A stretch of DNA of 64,000 nt from an uncultured Flavobacteriales bacterium (lineage in GTDB: Bacteria > Bacteroidota > Bacteroidia > Flavobacteriales > Flavobacteriaceae): the NCBI GenBank assembly GCA_963976005.1, contig CAXBJF010000011.1, forward strand, positions 11,276-75,275. Direction: 5' to 3'. The notes under the pieces were generated by a model that saw only the letters and a program-made list of their open reading frames with translations, did not search any database and was not told the DNA's origin. The translations under genes were made by a program, and so were the position numbers. This document shows positions 4,144 to 34,100 of the stretch, piece by piece (position 1 is the first letter of the stretch; the number at the start of each line of letters is the position of its first letter).

Positions 4144-4231
4144 CAGAGAGGAAGGGATTCGAACCCTCGATACCCTTTTGAGGTATACACACTTTCCAGG
4201 CGTGCGCCTTCGACCACTCGGCCACCTCTCT
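4144..4231 (-). tRNA. tRNA-Ser (anticodon GGA)
   Basis: Acceptor stem AGAGAGG/CCTCTCT, anticodon arm CACGC-CTGGAAA-GTGTG, long variable arm, GGTTCGAATCC T-arm; CCA not encoded. Confidence 0.97.
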
Positions 4232-6332: not shown

Positions 6333-6776
6333 ATGACTGATTCATTACAACAATTCCTACTTAATAAAGATTACATTAAAGTGAAGTTAAAGCTTGCCAA
6401 AACCAATCATTTTGAGATAAAAGCTACTATAAATGGTGTAAAGGGCCTGTTTATTTTAGATACTGGCGCTTCAAGTTCATGCGTTGGCTTTGATGCTATT
6501 GAAACCTTTAAACTTAATGCTGAAGACTCTAAAATTAAAGCAGCAGGTGCTGGCGATTCCAATATGGAAACACAAATTTCCAATAAAAACATTGTTAAAA
6601 TTGGAAAGTGGCAAGACCCTAAAATTGTATTGGTTTTATTTAACTTAACACATGTAAATACAGCACTAATAAACCATAATTCAAGACCTGTTGATGGTAT
6701 CATAGGTGCAGATATTTTAATAAAAGCCAAAGCGATTATTGATTATGAAAAAAGATATTTATATTTGAAAAAGTAA
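6333..6776 (+). CDS. Retropepsin-like (clan AA) aspartyl protease
   Basis: 'FILDTGAS' catalytic motif and 'DGIIGAD' C-terminal motif. Confidence 0.85.
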   Translation: MTDSLQQFLLNKDYIKVKLKLAKTNHFEIKATINGVKGLFILDTGASSSCVGFDAIETFKLNAEDSKIKAAGAGDSNMETQISNKNIVKIGKWQDPKIVLVLFNLTHVNTALINHNSRPVDGIIGADILIKAKAIIDYEKRYLYLKK

Positions 6777-6838
6777 GTCTTGAAATAAAATCTTGCATTT
6801 ACAATAAGTTTATTGACCAATCTACTTTAACTTTTAAA

Positions 6839-7927: not shown

Positions 7928-9145
7928 CTATAATTCCAGTGCTTTTTTAATATCATTATTCATTAATAATTCAATTGGGTTTTCTAACGCTTCTTTAACA
8001 GCAACCAAAAAACCAACACTTTCTTTTCCGTCAATGATTCTGTGATCATATGATAAAGCCACATACATAATTGGGCGGATTTCTACTTTTCCATTTATGG
8101 CAACGGGACGCTCAACAATATTATGCATTCCCAAAATACCACTTTGAGGAGGATTAATAATGGGCGTAGATAACATACTTCCAAAAACACCACCGTTTGA
8201 AATTGTGAAGGTTCCTCCGGTCATTTCATCAACCGTTATTTGTCCGTCACGTGCTCTAATTGCCAATCTTTTCACTTCGTTTTCAACGCCTCTAAACGTT
8301 AAATTTTCAACGTTACGCATCACGGGCACCATTAATCCTTTTGGTCCAGAAACTGCAATACTAATATCGCAAAAATCATAAGTAATCATTTCTTTTTCAT
8401 CAATCATTGAGTTTACTGTTGGATACATTTTTAAAGCTCTAACAACTGCTAATGAAAAGAAACTCATAAACCCTAATCCTACTCCGTGCTTCGTTTTAAA
8501 GTCTTCTTTATATTGATTTCGTAATGCAAAAATTGGAGACATATCAACTTCATTAAACGTTGTTAACATGGCCGTTGTGTTTTTTGCCTCAACTAATCGT
8601 TCTGCTACTTTTCGGCGTAGCATAGATAATTTTGTTCTGGTAGTTCCCCGATTTCCTCCAGTTGGAGTCCCCATGGATGGCGTTGCATTTACAGCATCAT
8701 CTTTAGTTATTCTACCCGCTTTTCCAGTACCTGTTACTTCTGAAGTTACAATGCCTTTTTCGTCTAAAATCTTTTTTGCTGCAGGGCTTGGGCTTCCTGT
8801 AGCATAGGTTTTAGCCTCCCCTAACCCCTCCGAAGGAGGGGAACTCGGACTTTGCTTCACCTCTGCAACTTTTTCTGGTTTTGAAGCTTCAGTGCCTTCT
8901 GGCTTTTCTGCGCTGGTATCAATTAAACATACCACCGCACCCACTGCTACAGCATCACCTTCTTCAGCTTTTAACGTAATGATTCCGCTTGCCTCCGCAG
9001 GAAGTTCAAGAGTTGCTTTATCACTATCTACTTCAGCAATGGGTTGGTCTTTTTCAACATAATCACCATCTTCAACCAACCATGTAGCAATTTCCACCTC
9101 TTTTATAGATTCCCCCGGAGAAGGAACTTTCATTTCTAAAATCAT
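7928..9145 (-). CDS. sucB: 2-oxoglutarate dehydrogenase E2 (dihydrolipoamide succinyltransferase)
   Basis: Lipoyl 'SDKAT', E3-binding '[12 protein letters not shown]', catalytic 'YDHRIIDG'. Confidence 0.97.
8814..8843. repeat. GC-rich hairpin repeat (family B) in-frame within the sucB linker
   Basis: GCCTCCCCTAA-CCCCTCC-GAA-GGAGGGG-AA; encodes part of '[13 protein letters not shown]'; related copy at 34072-34100. Confidence 0.7.
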
Positions 9146-9210: not shown

Positions 9211-11952
9211 TTAAATTTTCTCAAAAACCATATCAATCACACGTTGTTGTCTTCGTTTATCTCGCGTGCTAGAACCTGGTGCTGGAACAGAATTATAAGG
9301 TCTTGAAATGACTTCTAATTTCACCAAATCCATGCGTTGAGACATATGTGTCCATGCTCCCATATTTTTAGGTTCTTCTTGAGCCCAAGCATAATTTTTT
9401 ACATTGGGATAACGGTTGATGACGTGTTGTATTTTTTCAATATGTAAAGGAAATAGTTGCTCAATTCTAATTAAAGCCACATCCTCTCTGTTCAATTTTT
9501 CACGTTCTGCTAATAAATCATAATAGAATTTCCCAGTACAGAAAACCATTCTTTTAACTTTTTTCGGATTAACAGTATCGTCAATAACTTCATTGAATTG
9601 CCCCTTAACAAGGTCATTTAATGAGGATACCGCCTTTGGATGACGCAATAAACTTTTAGGTGTAAATACAATTAAAGGTTTTCTGAAATCGCGTTTCATT
9701 TGTCGTCGCAATAAATGGAAAAAGTTAGCTGGTGTGGTACAATCTGCCACAACCATATTATCATCTCCACATAATTGTAAAAAGCGTTCCATTCTGGCTG
9801 ATGAATGCTCTGAACCTTGACCTTCATAGCCGTGAGGCAACAACACCACAATTCCATTTTGAGATTTCCATTTATCTTCAGCTGCCGATAAATATTGGTC
9901 AAATATAATTTGAGCCCCATTACTAAAATCTCCAAACTGTGCTTCCCAAAGTGTTAAGGTATTTGGGTTAGCCAAAGCATACCCATAATCAAAACCAAGC
10001 ACTGCATATTCTGATAACAATGAGTTATAAATAGACATTTCACCTTTGTTAACAGGATTTAAATTCAACAAGTTTATTGTTTCTTCAGATATTTCATCAC
10101 GAAGAATAGCATGCCGGTGACTAAAAGTGCCGCGTTCCACATCCTGACCAGACATACGTACATTAAAACCTTCTTCTAACAAAGTACCGTAAGCCAATGT
10201 TTCAGCCATTCCCCAATCTAAGGCATCCGATTCAAAAACCATAGCAGCCCTACCGTCTAATATTCTTTCCGCTTTCCTAAGGAACTTAACGCCTTTTGGA
10301 ACGGTTGACACCAATTTAGCTAAATTTTCAAGTTTGTTTTTCGGATAAGAAGTGTCAACATCTTCAAGCATCTCATTAATGCCTTTTCGTTGGAAGCCTT
10401 TCCAACGTTCTTCCATAAATTCCCTTACTATCGAATTATCTTCCTTTTTGGATTTTGCATGTTCGGTTTCAAGCATGTCTTTAAATTCTTCAGAAATTTT
10501 TTCAACATATTCTTTATTGATGATTTTATCTGAAACTAATTTATCTGCATAAATACGTAACGGGTTTGGGTGTTTTGCTATTTCCTTATATAATTTAGGT
10601 TGTGTAAAACGAGGCTCATCGCCTTCATTATGCCCATATTTTCTGTACCCTAACAAGTCAATATAAACATCTTTTTTATATCGCATTCTATAGTCCAATG
10701 CCATTTCCACGGCATGTACAACGGCTTCAGCATCATCAGCATTAATATGCAATACTGGTGATAAAGTAACTTTTGCAACGTCTGTGCAATAGGTACTTGA
10801 ACGAGCGTCTAAATAATTGGTAGTAAAACCAATTTGATTATTTACAACAATATGAATAGTTCCTCCTGTTTTATAGCCTTTTAAAGTGCTCATTTGAGCT
10901 ACTTCATATACAATTCCCTGACCTGCTATGGCTGCATCACCATGTACTATAATGGGCAATATTTTTGAATCATCCCCATTATAATCATTATCAATTTTAG
11001 CACGTGTAATCCCTTCAGCTACAGATGTCACTGTTTCAAGATGTGATGGGTTTGGAACTAAATTCATTTTTAGGGTTTTTCCGTCCTGGTATGTTTTGTC
11101 AAGCGTTAAACCTAAATGATATTTTACATCACCATCAATATCTTCATCTTCAAAATCTTTGCCTTCAAACTCACTAAACAATTCTTTAATTGGCTTTCTA
11201 AAAATATTTACAAGTGTATTCAATCGTCCGCGGTGTGCCATTCCTAGAACACATTCCTTAACACCATATTTTTCAACAGCGTTAAAAAGAGCCACACTTA
11301 TTGCCGGAATTAATGTTTCCCCGCCTTCAAGAGAAAATCGTTTTTGACCAACATATTTGGTTTGCAAATAGTTCTCAAAGGTAACTGCTTGATTTAATTT
11401 TGAAAGAATGTATTTTTTTGCTGGAACTGAATAATTAGGATGATTATCATTCACATTAAGTTTATTCTGCCACCATTTAATAACCTCCGGATTCCTGATA
11501 TACATATACTCTACACCAATAGAACTACAGTATATTCTATTTAAATGAAAAACAATCTCTCTTAAGGTTTGTACACCAATACCTAAAACTTCTCCCGCAT
11601 TAAAAACGGTATCCAAATCACTTTCAGAAAGCCCAAAATTTTCTAAATCCAACGTAGGCTCATAGGTTCTTCTGGTTCTTACAGGATTCGTTCTTGTGAA
11701 TAAATGACCTCGTGTTCTATATCCATCAATAAGTTTTATGACTTGAAATTCCTTTTTAACATCTTCTGGAATTTGAGTCATTACGCCTTCAGCAATTACA
11801 CCATTTAATCCGTAATTTTCAGTGCCAAAATCATAGCCTTGAAAAAAGGCCCTCCAACTTGGTTCTACCGTATCCGGGTTTTGTAGATATTGGTCGTATA
11901 AATTGGCAAAATACGTAGTGTGTGCCGCGTTTAAAAAGGAAAATTTATCCAT
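9211..11952 (-). CDS. sucA: 2-oxoglutarate dehydrogenase E1
   Basis: 'GQKRFSLEG', 'GMAHRGRLN', TPP motif 'HGDAAIAGQG', 'WEAQFGDF'. Start placed at MDKFSFLN, because a -7 promoter element sits at the upstream ORF start. Confidence 0.97.
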   Translation of the reverse strand: MDKFSFLNAAHTTYFANLYDQYLQNPDTVEPSWRAFFQGYDFGTENYGLNGVIAEGVMTQIPEDVKKEFQVIKLIDGYRTRGHLFTRTNPVRTRRTYEPTLDLENFGLSESDLDTVFNAGEVLGIGVQTLREIVFHLNRIYCSSIGVEYMYIRNPEVIKWWQNKLNVNDNHPNYSVPAKKYILSKLNQAVTFENYLQTKYVGQKRFSLEGGETLIPAISVALFNAVEKYGVKECVLGMAHRGRLNTLVNIFRKPIKELFSEFEGKDFEDEDIDGDVKYHLGLTLDKTYQDGKTLKMNLVPNPSHLETVTSVAEGITRAKIDNDYNGDDSKILPIIVHGDAAIAGQGIVYEVAQMSTLKGYKTGGTIHIVVNNQIGFTTNYLDARSSTYCTDVAKVTLSPVLHINADDAEAVVHAVEMALDYRMRYKKDVYIDLLGYRKYGHNEGDEPRFTQPKLYKEIAKHPNPLRIYADKLVSDKIINKEYVEKISEEFKDMLETEHAKSKKEDNSIVREFMEERWKGFQRKGINEMLEDVDTSYPKNKLENLAKLVSTVPKGVKFLRKAERILDGRAAMVFESDALDWGMAETLAYGTLLEEGFNVRMSGQDVERGTFSHRHAILRDEISEETINLLNLNPVNKGEMSIYNSLLSEYAVLGFDYGYALANPNTLTLWEAQFGDFSNGAQIIFDQYLSAAEDKWKSQNGIVVLLPHGYEGQGSEHSSARMERFLQLCGDDNMVVADCTTPANFFHLLRRQMKRDFRKPLIVFTPKSLLRHPKAVSSLNDLVKGQFNEVIDDTVNPKKVKRMVFCTGKFYYDLLAEREKLNREDVALIRIEQLFPLHIEKIQHVINRYPNVKNYAWAQEEPKNMGAWTHMSQRMDLVKLEVISRPYNSVPAPGSSTRDKRRQQRVIDMVFEKI

Positions 11953-31155: not shown

Positions 31156-31392
31156 ATGAAAAAATCAACAACCATAACTTGGATCGTTCTCTTGGCATTA
31201 ACCATTGCATCTGCCCTATTATCCAAACTCAACCCACCCTATGTAGCACTAATAATTTTAATATTGGCAGCACTAAAATTTATTGGAATATCTTTTCAGT
31301 TTATGGAAATGAAAAAAGCAAACCCCTTTTGGAAAGGGATGATTCTGGGGTTTTTATTACTATTTGTAACAATAATATTTGTGGTTAATTAG
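31156..31392 (+). CDS. norF: Cytochrome oxidase subunit IV-like NorF
   Basis: 3 TM, 'KFIGISFQFMEMK'; follows norE. Confidence 0.75.
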   Translation: MKKSTTITWIVLLALTIASALLSKLNPPYVALIILILAALKFIGISFQFMEMKKANPFWKGMILGFLLLFVTIIFVVN

Positions 31393-31411: not shown

Positions 31412-31567
31412 AGGCGTTACCACAAGGGTCGGGCTTTCCGTTACAATCTTTTTAAAAATCAAGGTCATTGCGAAACAAATTTTAATTTGCTGTGGCAATC
31501 CCTTAATAGGGAGTCATAGCATTTTTATTTTTTAAAAAGGATTTCTACTGCAATCCCTAACGCAAAT
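31412..31567. repeat. Intergenic repeat (family E), long form
   Basis: Ends GGCGTT..GGTCGGGCTTTCCGTTACA and CTGCAATCCCTAACGCAAAT; short form at 54689; internal GTCATTGCGA module. Confidence 0.65.
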
Positions 31568-31587
31568 TCCGGTTCAATTTATACATA

Positions 31588-33336: not shown

Positions 33337-34068
33337 TTAACCAAATTGTTGTTCTAATTTAATTGCTCCAGGAAATAAAATGTTATTTTCTAAATGTATG
33401 TGTAAATGTAAATCTTGTTCAAATTCCTGAAGCATTGAAAAGGCTACTTTATAAGTGTTGCAGCCATCTGCCGGCGGGTTATAGTTATTTGATGTTTCTG
33501 CAATTTGTCTGAAACGTTCACCTTCATTATCATGTTCTTGCATCATAGAAGCAATAGGGTTTTCTACGGTGCCAAACTGTGGTGATTGAATAACGCTATT
33601 TCCCAATTTTGCGCTCACCATTTTTTTAATAAACGGAAATAAAATCAATTCTTCTTTTTTCATATGTGAAGCGAGTTCACCGGCCGAAGCTGTAAAAAGT
33701 TCATTTATTTTAAATAATTCCGGATGGTTTCCTCCATGTACAGAACATAGTTTATCTAAAAACTGACGTATTACAGGTGTTTTTTCTGCTACGTATCTGT
33801 GGTGTTTTTTCTCAATATAATCTGCCAATAAATCTAAAGGCCATGTTTTATAATCAGTAGATTGACTCGTAGTTGAGTTTAAAACAGCCTGAAGCTCATC
33901 TAAAAGGGTATTTACTTCTATTCCTTTTTTATTGCAAACTTCTTCAACTGTTCTGTCTCCTTTACAGCAAAAATCGATGCCATGGTTACTGAATACTGCT
34001 GCAGTTCTGAAATCGTCTGCAACAAATTGCCCTATTTGTTTTTCTGAATTTTTATTTATTACTTCCAT
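33337..34068 (-). CDS. ric: Iron-sulfur cluster repair di-iron protein (Ric/YtfE/ScdA)
   Basis: 'GIDFCCKG', 'HHRY', 'HMKKEE.ILFP', 'EHD' and 'HIHLENNILFP'. Confidence 0.95.
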   Translation of the reverse strand: MEVINKNSEKQIGQFVADDFRTAAVFSNHGIDFCCKGDRTVEEVCNKKGIEVNTLLDELQAVLNSTTSQSTDYKTWPLDLLADYIEKKHHRYVAEKTPVIRQFLDKLCSVHGGNHPELFKINELFTASAGELASHMKKEELILFPFIKKMVSAKLGNSVIQSPQFGTVENPIASMMQEHDNEGERFRQIAETSNNYNPPADGCNTYKVAFSMLQEFEQDLHLHIHLENNILFPGAIKLEQQFG

Positions 34069-34071
34069 AAT

Positions 34072-34100
34072 CCTCTCCCAACCCTCTCCAAAGGAAAGGG
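34072..34100. repeat. Family B hairpin repeat directly upstream of the ric ATG
   Basis: CCTCTCCCAA-CCCTCTCC-AAA-GGAAAGGG; same architecture as 8814-8843. Confidence 0.65.

Follow-up and report, generated by a model that had tools for sequence, protein, structure and literature searches.

A probable in-frame copy of the BoxC/PIT/TM triplex repeat family in the SucB linker of Flavobacteriaceae and its possible connection with DUF559 nuclease cassettes

How a GC-rich palindromic repeat comes to be translated inside an enzyme of an essential pathway is the question raised by the sucB gene in a 64-kb stretch of DNA from an uncultured Flavobacteriales bacterium (the whole of which is called the window here). 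A preliminary description of this DNA had pointed to a GC-rich hairpin lying in frame in the linker of this AT-rich gene, and the feature proved real in sequence, reading frame, predicted stem and composition, being one of only eight 30-nt islands that reach 66% G+C, against about 33% for the window. We consider it probable (roughly 0.8) that the feature is a solo in-frame copy of a pan-bacterial intrastrand-triplex/hairpin repeat family, which goes under the names BoxC, PIT, TM_ECO and HPGQ. The coordinates are collected in Table 1.

Table 1. Features of the sucB locus and the second repeat copy (window coordinates).
Feature	Positions	Strand	Sequence, basis or remarks
sucB	7928-9145	-	ORF; E2 dihydrolipoyllysine-residue succinyltransferase of 2-oxoglutarate dehydrogenase, 405 aa
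SucB Pfam domains			Biotin_lipoyl aa 4-75; E3_binding aa 120-150; 2-oxoacid_dh aa 167-395
Inter-domain linker, lipoyl to E3-binding (aa 76-119)	8789-8920	-	Pfam limits and coordinate conversion
Whole in-frame repeat unit	8808-8847	-	CGAGTT-CCCCTCC-TTC-GGAGGGG-TTA-GGGGAGG-CTAAAAC, about 35-40 nt
Arm 1, pyrimidine	8835-8841	-	CCCCTCC; sequence and three-arm scan
Loop 1	8832-8834	-	TTC; orthologues vary: TTT, or flipped form GAA
Arm 2, purine	8825-8831	-	GGAGGGG; Watson-Crick partner of arm 1
Loop 2	8822-8824	-	TTA ('type A' in Holder et al., PMC4666352); orthologues: CTA, TCA, ACG
Arm 3	8815-8821	-	GGGGAGG; exact mirror of arm 2
Second family copy, non-coding	34072-34100	-	CCCTTTCC-TTT-GGAGAGGG-TT-GGGAGAGG, one stem mismatch

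The host protein has the lipoyl, E3-binding and catalytic acyltransferase domains that, with an adjacent sucA, mark the E2 component of 2-oxoglutarate dehydrogenase; sucA (927 aa) lies directly upstream, relatives show the same synteny, and proteins 100% identical to it carry the name SucB in a Yeosuana genome. An alignment of 120 orthologues revealed the inter-domain linker as the sole strongly variable block of SucB. The peptide encoded by the repeat (aa 101-111, plus-strand positions 8813-8845) falls within this linker. The repeat sits in the only sequence-unconstrained part of the protein. The whole unit encodes 12 residues, flanked by (P) and (T). Its frame, the only stop-free sense frame in which the TTA of loop 2 is a codon, yields a Ser/Pro/Gly/Glu-rich peptide suited to a flexible tether. 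A contig derived from RNA covers positions 8819-8969 with zero differences. An assembly artefact was rejected, since the allele recurs in many independent contigs as well as in isolate and complete genomes (Yeosuana, Flavivirga CP141266, Mariniflexile).

At the DNA level, plus-strand positions 8814-8848 read GCCTCCCCTAACCCCTCCGAAGGAGGGGAACTCGG, and on the minus strand 8815-8841 is CCCCTCC-TTC-GGAGGGG-TTA-GGGGAGG, in which a perfect 7-bp hairpin precedes the purine arm repeated in mirror order. Watson-Crick folding prediction returned the perfect 7-bp stem with a 3-nt loop on both strands. The folding-energy z-scores of the element were unremarkable against dinucleotide shuffles (-0.2 to -1.5), so the evidence lies in architecture and family membership and not in folding energy. 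The layout of pyrimidine arm, loop, purine arm, loop and mirror arm turns up at two places in the window but in none of 20 shuffled versions of it, and the pattern CCTCNCCNAACCC has exact matches only at 8815 and 34072, with about 0.03 estimated by chance. Only exact matches count here, as the same pattern with up to two mismatches was not enriched in the window (10 matches vs 5.5 expected). An Rfam gathering scan of the window gave a tRNA and Flavo-1 only, and no family over the sucB element.

The second of the two family copies found in the window by the three-arm scan is flanked by genes for an Rrf2 regulator and a ScdA/RIC-type hemerythrin, stopping 3 nt short of the ATG of the latter, which bears out the earlier statement that the architecture recurs at this non-coding site. 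The structural scan took the place of a fixed-length consensus search (up to six substitutions, about 230 kb of related loci), which had found the sucB copies only, because arm lengths differ within the family. Further copies were found near nosL in relatives and at other loci in the same metagenomes. The metagenome contigs from other loci align only to positions 8808-8851, diverging at 8809/8813 on one side and at 8839-8847 on the other, in a contig-level comparison that is insensitive to rare excision variants, and the unit flanks GAGTT and CTAAAAC recur in the copies that relatives carry outside sucB.

BoxC and PIT elements were reportedly treated by Bachellier and colleagues in the 1990s and by Hoyne and colleagues in 2000. 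The ITxF criteria of Holder et al. (NAR 2015, PMC4666352) for an intrastrand triplex motif comprise three consecutive blocks on one strand, a stem of 6-15 nt, loops of 1-6 nt and at most one mismatch; the sucB element has arms of 7 nt, loops of 3 nt and no mismatch. Its third arm fits a purine-motif (class II) intrastrand triplex with seven predicted triads, the sequence allowing the G*G-C, A*A-T or T*A-T triads formed when arm 3 runs antiparallel to the purine arm. Across the family, the third arm covaries with the purine arm: of 659 unconstrained positions, 619 agree with the G*G / A*A / T*A rule (0.94, vs a mean of 0.82 and a maximum of 0.86 in permutations). The element extends beyond the hairpin to include this third, mirror arm, which is conserved and covarying. 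Kinship is further indicated by the G/C-rich arms, a TTA or CTA second loop and the GTTCC lead-in, and by the fact that one degenerate pattern retrieves the sucB type, intermediates and the E. coli/Pseudomonas type, GTTCCCTCTCCCTTYGGGAGAGGGYTAGGGTGAGGG, alike. In the genome collection the degenerate pattern had at least 123 matches, and the arms were perfectly complementary in 90 of the 123 matches listed. Exact copies of the sucB type are present at loci other than sucB, and identical or nearly identical copies are found both outside coding sequence and within further genes of Flavobacteriaceae and of many phyla. The E. coli consensus was present in 5409 of 5426 genomes at a median of 18 places, and the published family sequence string was found in both PMC4666352 and PMC5100583. 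The suggestion of a Bacteroidota-specific or Rickettsia-type repeat was given up: the family is pan-bacterial, already described in E. coli, and unlike Rickettsia palindromic elements (RPEs) in size and probably in sequence.

Translation of the repeat is not peculiar to SucB. At least 17 of the 123 family copies, among the matches listed, are in frame within recognisable genes across phyla, and in-frame copies were confirmed in LeuRS, an IcmF-like mutase, RecG, urocanase, MetH, UvrA and others, the LeuRS copy occupying the same site and encoding the same peptide in three species. The DNA of the sucB copy and its peptide recur in unrelated proteins, the same DNA is also found in non-coding positions, and the opposite orientation encodes quite different peptides in other proteins (PLTPSKGGGT, TPNPSPKERGT). 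The claim that a dispersed repeat, defined at the level of DNA, is read through in the E2 linker is upheld. Our literature search, of incomplete coverage, found no prior description of the encoded peptides. In being translated, the sucB copy departs from the intergenic location stated for all E. coli copies. That location is a described trait of the E. coli copies and not a structural definition.

With regard to the history of the linker, close orthologues mostly have an Ala/Pro/Lys/Glu linker without the peptide, just as had been predicted for an alignment of orthologues. The repeat is carried by 18 of 120 SucB orthologues from several genera of Flavobacteriaceae, at no fewer than nine scattered positions of a neighbour-joining tree that is weakly resolved, the proteins being 85-90% identical. 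All repeat-bearing alleles share one junction, AGT CCR AGT TCC, and a private insertion of this genome is thus contradicted by the same junction in at least nine lineages. The notion that the repeat simply added a peptide fared no better. Linkers that carry the repeat have a median length of 35 aa and those that lack it 33 aa (net about +2 aa), and in two loci with 90% identical sucB DNA (L003 and L128) a 48-nt block stands in place of a 42-nt block, the flanks being nearly identical and the linker blocks unrelated. What the repeat-free allele has at this place is another sequence block, not the repeat-bearing one with 39 nt removed, and comparison of the sucB alleles recognised no target-site duplication or clean empty site. 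The repeat replaces linker sequence rather than adding to it. Within same-amino-acid pairs, codon identity is 0.79 in the element vs 0.57 in the rest of sucB, and the top three of 380 eleven-codon windows all overlap the element. The stem is intact in seven of nine sequenced alleles, with changes mainly in the loops.

These observations suggest that the repeat may have entered the linker once, with the loss of a similar length of the old linker, that it would be selectively near-neutral for the enzyme, and that the allele may then have passed from one related species to another through short-tract homologous recombination or homing-like gene conversion. Such movement would also account for the synonymous conservation of the element, which is the highest in sucB.

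An alternative is that the ancestor of this clade of Flavobacteriaceae already had the repeat-bearing linker, which then descended vertically with many independent losses. The single junction common to all copies, the poor resolution of the protein tree and the degenerate forms seen among orthologues (EGQREA, TPPSEGTGEA, SSSPSEGSGE) could all be expected under vertical descent. We nevertheless regard it as unlikely: in both major clades the linkers lacking the repeat are mutually homologous (APKxETxK...) rather than degraded copies of it, the repeat is confined to a small part of the orthologues, and the unrelated block within the near-identical flanks of L003 and L128 calls for replacement, not decay. 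Because of this block swap, gradual decay of an ancestral repeat was ruled out as the general origin of repeat-free linkers.

Less probable still is that the nucleotide structure itself is functional in sucB and kept by selection, either as an mRNA hairpin that pauses ribosomes between the lipoyl and E3-binding domains or as a triplex/hairpin in the non-template DNA strand that modulates transcription. The stability of the predicted RNA hairpin, the synonymous conservation of the element and the concentration of changes in its loops agree with such a role, but the conservation is equally well explained by recent lateral spread. Moreover, the repeat is missing from most orthologues, even from the closest ones (90% identity), yet these keep the same domain spacing, the stem of one allele (L005) has decayed, and the element also resides in unrelated genes and intergenic DNA. 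In E. coli the family showed no promoter, terminator or polymerase-blocking activity in vivo in the work of Maher's group, as far as it is summarised in PMC4666352.

A possible means of spread is indicated by genes for DUF559, a Vsr/EDxHD-like nuclease domain (PF04480). Cognate inverted repeats flank 59 of 80 metagenome DUF559 loci, and 21 of 80 have no repeat within 150 nt under a strict rule. As predicted, the flanking also held in both of two gene families picked independently of the repeats. Repeat density reaches 3.83 per kb adjoining DUF559, compared with 0.17 in other sequence. Of the 38 flanking pairs, 36 have an inverted orientation and 15 have identical arms, where 2 would be expected. 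The cassettes, with their inverted repeat ends, often lie in frame inside aminoacyl-tRNA synthetases, and one at about aa 324 of LeuRS was found in many contigs. The DUF559 profile matches PDB 3HRL and the homing endonuclease I-Bth0305I (3R3P, E 1e-4). By tblastn, no DUF559 gene was detected in the window or in the sucB loci of relatives, none of which had a SucB carrying a DUF559 cassette, and no match in the DUF559 protein search was named as Yeosuana. In the literature, as far as it was covered, no earlier account of DUF559 or YcjD together with the repeats was found.

This association suggests that DUF559 nucleases may mobilise or target the repeat family, much as REP sequences relate to RAYT transposases. 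We tentatively propose, with a confidence somewhat short of even, that BoxC/TM repeats, far from being orphan structural motifs, would be the cognate ends or targets of compact mobile TM(-)-DUF559-TM(+) cassettes spread in a homing-type manner by the Vsr/EDxHD-like nuclease. Cassettes and solo repeats alike would be able to stay in frame in essential genes (aminoacyl-tRNA synthetases, MetH, SucB, RecG), since the product of their stop-free frames would be harmless loops rich in Pro, Gly and Ser. On this view the patchily distributed sucB allele would be one footprint of the process.

The same association could mean that a homing-type enzyme placed the repeat repeatedly and independently at one sucB site. 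The recurrent use of single sites in LeuRS, by the repeat in three species and by the DUF559 cassette, and the link with a nuclease resembling homing endonucleases would accord with this, to which we give only a slim chance. The junctions are identical across lineages, and the shared upstream codons (K-x-S/N-P-S) are absent from the repeat in other copies, so independent events would have to copy the flank as well; this amounts to gene conversion from a donor allele and merges independent insertion with the preferred reading, in which a single entry would have been followed by allele transfer. That the peptide is a selected protein motif with an incidental hairpin, or the palindrome a chance GC-rich one, is hardly credible: Ser/Pro-rich linkers are indeed common in E2 proteins, but the same DNA is non-coding elsewhere or encodes quite different peptides in the opposite orientation, the rare codons GGG, GAG, TCC and TCG are kept, and the architecture did not arise in the shuffles.

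In the literature, BoxC/PIT/TM repeats go back to the 1990s, with no function and no mode of spread assigned to them. Both principal studies place them neither in ORFs nor near mobility genes: the E. coli copies are reported as strictly intergenic with no mobility gene nearby (PMC4666352), and the HPGQ motifs as all outside ORFs (PMC5100583). The reach of the family now extends to Flavobacteriaceae, a group absent from Holder et al. (PMC4666352), and to many other phyla. A sizeable fraction of copies is translated in conserved enzymes, so that the family repeatedly supplies proteins with short in-frame insertions, far outside the Rickettsia precedent, and the REP/RAYT-like bracketing of DUF559 genes opens the old problem of how BoxC moves to direct testing. 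In annotation, the family accounts for common odd Pro/Gly-rich peptides and for split or extended gene calls in metagenomes.

Compared with known systems, the sucB element shares with BoxC/PIT/TM_ECO the pyrimidine arm, complementary purine arm and mirror purine arm, the G/C-richness, the 3-nt loops and the TTA second loop; the family occurs in many phyla, often as inverted pairs, and is tied to local genome variability (PMC4666352). It differs in its arms of 7 nt, those of E. coli being 9 nt (CCCTCTCCC / GGGAGAGGG / GGGTGAGGG), and in its translation in an essential-pathway enzyme. As HPGQ (HPG1/HPG2), the same E. coli family has been viewed as a 'G-quadruplex-hairpin-duplex switch' by Kaplan et al. 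(NAR 2016, PMC5100583), whose Table 1 includes a copy adjoining ycjD (printed yjcD). HPGQ motifs are defined by four tracts of at least three G with short loops and an adjacent complementary C-rich arm. The C-rich arm is present in the sucB copy, but GGAGGGGTTAGGGGAGG (GG A GGGG TTA GGGG A GG) falls outside the four-tract rule because only two of its tracts have three or more G, and the sequence could form a two-tetrad quadruplex at most.

RPEs are about 100-150 bp long, restricted to Rickettsia and related lineages, presumably unrelated in sequence to the sucB unit, and read in frame within housekeeping proteins, on the surface or in linkers. The likeness is one of functional analogy, in that such proteins put up with a selfish palindrome in their reading frame; by size, host and description the sucB unit is distinct, being about 40 nt long, located in Flavobacteriaceae, and belonging to a pan-bacterial family with a third, mirror arm. 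REP/REPIN-RAYT systems resemble the present one in their short GC-rich multicopy hairpins, in one coding gene flanked by cognate inverted copies and in arm-gene covariation. However, the flanked gene here encodes a DUF559 Vsr/EDxHD-like nuclease of predicted activity and not an IS200/IS605-type Y1 transposase, the GTAG/CGTC tag is absent from the sucB element, and REPs are extragenic, whereas the triplex repeats are often translated. For MITEs, which have terminal inverted repeats and a target-site duplication and derive from an autonomous element, the observations point both ways: the DUF559 cassettes end in inverted repeats, and at sucB no target-site duplication was recognised. EDxHD homing endonucleases such as I-Bth0305I (Taylor et al. 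2011, PMC3239194) are approached through the match of the DUF559 profile to the catalytic domain 3R3P, and homing elements in general through the fixed sites that the cassettes occupy in conserved genes (LeuRS, IleRS, ValRS, MetH). Unlike introns and inteins, the DUF559 cassettes had no intron or Hint/intein splicing domain around them in Pfam scans; they are read through as extra protein and bounded by triplex repeats.

The feature within sucB is a translated, solo member of the BoxC/PIT/TM repeat family, and it lies in the only stretch of SucB with almost no constraint on sequence. In the ORF map of the window, sucA lies immediately upstream of the gene. Arms 1 and 2 of the element form a perfect 7-bp hairpin and arm 3 mirrors the purine arm exactly, a layout suited to an intramolecular triplex of the purine motif, for which G*G-C and A*A-T triads are predicted. 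Just eight stretches of 30 nt in the window (about 33% G+C) reach 66% G+C or more, and the element is one of them; a tRNA gene accounts for another. Its folding-energy z-scores were unremarkable, hence the case was not built on thermodynamics. A three-arm scan recovered two sites in the window, in sucB and at 34072-34100, and none in 20 shuffled windows. Both the sequence of the linker repeat and the presence of the same architecture in non-coding DNA had been reported in the preliminary description and were confirmed; its 13-mer pattern has exact matches in the window solely at 8815 and 34072. An RNA-derived contig spans 8819-8969 with zero differences (a contig-level comparison, in which rare variants are hidden), and metagenome contigs of other loci, compared likewise, align solely over 8808-8851, which sets the limits of the repeat unit.

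The neighbours of the non-coding copy are a gene for an Rrf2 regulator on one side and one for a hemerythrin of the ScdA/RIC type on the other. Its purine-rich third arm stops 3 nt ahead of the hemerythrin ATG, a Shine-Dalgarno-like position, and on the plus strand the hairpin is followed by terminator-like T-runs. A weak three-arm match near the Flavo-1 RNA, with mismatches in the stem and in the third arm, is probably due to chance.

Coordinates of the features in the window and in loci fetched for comparison
Feature	Position	Strand	Basis or remark
sucB, 405 aa	7928-9145	-	ORF and Pfam: lipoyl 4-75, E3-binding 120-150, catalytic 167-395
Repeat-encoded 11-residue peptide, SucB linker	aa 101-111; 8813-8845 (+ strand numbering)		Coordinate conversion
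sucB element, coding strand CGAGTT-CCCCTCC-TTC-GGAGGGG-TTA-GGGGAGG-CTAAAAC	8808-8847	-	Read from sequence
Non-coding copy CCCTTTCC-TTT-GGAGAGGG-TT-GGGAGAGG	34072-34100	-	Same plan as sucB element, other letters
Hemerythrin gene	33337-34068	-	ORF
Flavo-1 RNA (RF01705)	31423-31568	-	Rfam, 51 bits vs gathering score 42
Weak three-arm match	31323-31352	+	Scan
tRNA gene	4144-4231	-	Rfam, 56 bits
Flavivirga sucB element (L003)	10301-10329		GAA loop
ORF6N-domain gene, 168 aa (L004, Mariniflexile)	9485-9991
In-frame element in nosL (L007)	1693-1722
nosL (L007)	1260-1760	-
Family hairpin with insert (L007)	~1780-1870	-
Identical repeats (L025, Prevotellaceae contig)	6675-6703 and 6753-6781		78 nt apart

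A degenerate pattern that summarises the copies already identified was run on a genome collection and returned at least 119 stretches, with 123 matches listed as an arbitrary sample. The matches listed span Pseudomonas, Enterobacterales, Planctomycetota, Chloroflexota, Acidobacteriota, Cyanobacteria, Nitrospirota and many Bacteroidota; their most frequent form is GTTCCCTCTCCC-TTY-GGGAGAGGG-YTA-GGGTGAGGG, and the exact sucB-type arms CCCCTCC/GGAGGGG/GGGGAGG also occur at non-sucB loci of Flavobacteriaceae and other Bacteroidota. In 90 of these 123 the unconstrained arm cores are perfectly complementary. Arm sequence varies between copies and the third arm tracks the purine arm: among the matches listed, the triplex rule (third-arm G against G, third-arm A or T against A) is kept at 619 of 659 pattern-free positions (0.94), compared with a mean of 0.82 and a maximum of 0.86 in 200 permutations. 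A literature search with the sequence string pinned the family down; by its sequence it is the BoxC/PIT/TM_ECO "intrastrand triplex motif" (Holder et al. 2015, PMC4666352), and the HPGQ "G-quadruplex-hairpin-duplex switch" (Kaplan et al. 2016, PMC5100583) is the same family. Its E. coli 36-nt form was present in 5409 of 5426 complete E. coli genomes, at a median of 18 places, none of them annotated. A point made by both papers is that every copy in E. coli is intergenic; Holder et al. found no mobility gene near them and make no mention of Bacteroidetes. The element is not specific to Bacteroidota: copies come from many phyla and the family is known from E. coli. The sucB element agrees with the family in its architecture, its loop type, the triad rule and its kinship in sequence; it breaks with the E. 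coli copies, described as intergenic without exception, and it falls outside the canonical four-tract G-quadruplex definition. What is new relative to the known family is the translated, non-intergenic location.

The sucB copy is one instance of a general phenomenon. Of the 123 family copies listed, 39 have an open frame running 40 codons or more to either side, and Pfam found 17 recognisable proteins among 18 long repeat-bearing ORFs. LeuRS of three Flavobacteriaceae carries an identical 11-residue peptide at one site, directly ahead of the anticodon-binding domain. An IcmF-like B12-MeaB-mutase fusion of two species carries the repeat, which occurs there in both orientations. In RecG it separates the two helicase lobes, and in a NuoF/GltD-like protein and in a hybrid histidine kinase it likewise falls between domains; further hosts are urocanase, alpha-2-macroglobulins, UvrA, ComEC, a Mur ligase, a radical-SAM protein and MetH. 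Opposite-orientation translations read PLTPSKGGGT, TPNPSPKERGT, SLTLPKGKGT and HPNPLPKGEGT. No stop-bearing frames (TAG/TAA out of the TTAG/CTAA stretches) occurred among the in-frame copies examined, as expected if insertions free of stops simply survive wherever the site tolerates them. NosL of L007 has 166 aa vs 145-146 aa in three relatives, the extra EFPFLWKGLGIGLKH, in the signal-peptide region, being the triplex repeat; besides sucB, it is the second example of in-frame reading in this group of genomes. In the same locus a family hairpin, TTCCCTTCC ... GGAAAGGG TTA AGGG, holds in its loop a palindromic insert of about 75 nt that looks like a nested insertion. The repeat pair of L025 belongs to a unit duplicated in tandem, and the open frame around it runs for 235 codons.

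The 120 best SucB homologues, all of 400-411 aa, were compared, and the repeat peptide or a recognisable variant was found in 18 of them; the others show, in the same columns, the Ala/Pro/Lys/Glu linker APKxETxK...E(S/A)K that the preliminary description had expected. The repeat-bearing alleles have in common AGT CCR AGT TCC CCT CCT TCG GAG GGG YTA GGG GAG GCN, and since the upstream codons AGT CCR are absent from the repeat at other loci, the sucB copies share a junction and a common origin. Differences are concentrated in the loops (loop 1 TTC, TTT or GAA; loop 2 TTA/CTA/TCA/ACG). The Flavivirga allele has GAA for TTC in an otherwise identical hairpin, changing Ser to Lys in the protein, and reads as the flipped loop expected of a hairpin; in the allele of L005 the stem has decayed. 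sucA and sucB are adjacent in every examined locus except L004, where the ORF6N-domain gene is wedged between them.

In a linker-masked tree, which is weak because the proteins are very similar, repeat-bearing SucB appears at nine or more separate places, mostly beside repeat-free ones. The closest mixed pair, L003 with the repeat and L128 without, is 90% identical in DNA with near-identical flanks, and a 48-nt repeat-containing block in the former takes the place of an unrelated 42-nt block in the latter. The median linker is 35 aa with and 33 aa without the repeat, so the repeat replaced linker and did not lengthen it, contrary to the earlier claim of added peptide sequence. Codon identity at same-amino-acid pairs is 0.79 in the element and 0.57 in the rest of sucB, and the element overlaps the top 3 of 380 eleven-codon windows in this respect. 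Taken together, the tree scatter, block swap, linker lengths and codon identity point to two linker alleles swapped between related lineages by short tracts, or to homing-like conversion. Vertical descent with repeated replacement of the linker may also account for the scatter. The DNA or RNA structure may also act within sucB, for instance by pausing translation between domains or by influencing transcription, yet such a role is superfluous for explaining the data, and most SucB orthologues do without the element. An assembly artefact was rejected, because the allele occurs in isolate and complete genomes (Yeosuana, Flavivirga, Mariniflexile). We favour allele exchange: the repeat would have entered the linker once, with loss of a similar linker length, would be near-neutral for the enzyme, and would have spread between related species via short-tract recombination or conversion.

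A candidate partner of the family is the DUF559 nuclease. Pfam placed a DUF559 domain within LeuRS (L102) and within MetH (L061), the latter bracketed by two inverted repeats with everything in one frame, and all four DUF559 homologues within the at least 119 listed repeat loci lie 51 nt or less from a repeat. In E. coli a repeat lies 174 nt downstream of ycjD, the K-12 DUF559 gene, a copy also included in Table 1 of Kaplan et al. 2016 (PMC5100583). A metagenome scan seeded solely with the nuclease core motif gave 80 DUF559 loci, 59 of which have a repeat within 150 nt (upstream 52, downstream 49, both sides 42), at a density of 3.83 per kb in the flanks vs 0.17 per kb elsewhere in the same loci. 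Flanking pairs are inverted in 36 of 38, with hairpins facing the gene and third arms outermost. Purine arms match within a locus and differ between loci, being identical on both flanks in 15 of 38 (expected 2.0; maximum 6 in 500 shuffles). As a prediction test, two stand-alone gut Bacteroidales DUF559 families (P0141 and P0126) were picked from a protein search regardless of repeats, and both have inverted flanking repeats. The loci behind these observations on DUF559 (PF04480) are L131-L218, L061, L102, L014, L022 and L130, the last being the E. coli ycjD region.

Open frames of at least 300 aa contain 36 of the 80 homologues; Pfam identified the hosts as LeuRS (several sites, with two copies in the gene of L153), IleRS, ValRS, a GlgB-like branching enzyme, an AAA_11/12 helicase and the HsdM C-terminus. 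The in-frame loci are L153, L147, L177, L197, L179, L135, L136, L185, L139, L061 and L102; Pfam scans of them returned no intein or Hint domain. Gene calling sometimes breaks the host gene at the insert, and JGI labels DUF559 ORFs of 146-169 aa 'leucyl-tRNA synthetase' or 'RecG'. The conserved E-x-D-G-x-x-H-D core is intact in the in-frame copies, and the DUF559 profile hits two PDB entries: 3HRL ("endonuclease-like protein", E 9e-36) and 3R3P (E 1e-4). The latter entry is the catalytic domain from I-Bth0305I, which is a proven homing endonuclease and belongs to the Vsr-related EDxHD family (PMC3239194). A DUF559 gene is absent from the 64-kb window and from the sucB neighbourhoods of relatives, and a literature search of incomplete coverage found no paper tying DUF559 or YcjD to these repeats. 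If borne out biochemically, the association would outweigh the sucB feature in importance.

Regarding known systems, the Rickettsia palindromic elements cited as a precedent in the preliminary description hold as a functional analogy and not as kin of the sucB element, since size, host and structure differ. The association suggests that the repeat family may depend on DUF559 nucleases, as REP sequences do on RAYT transposases or MITEs on their parent elements; the likeness to REP/RAYT is one of analogy, not of membership.
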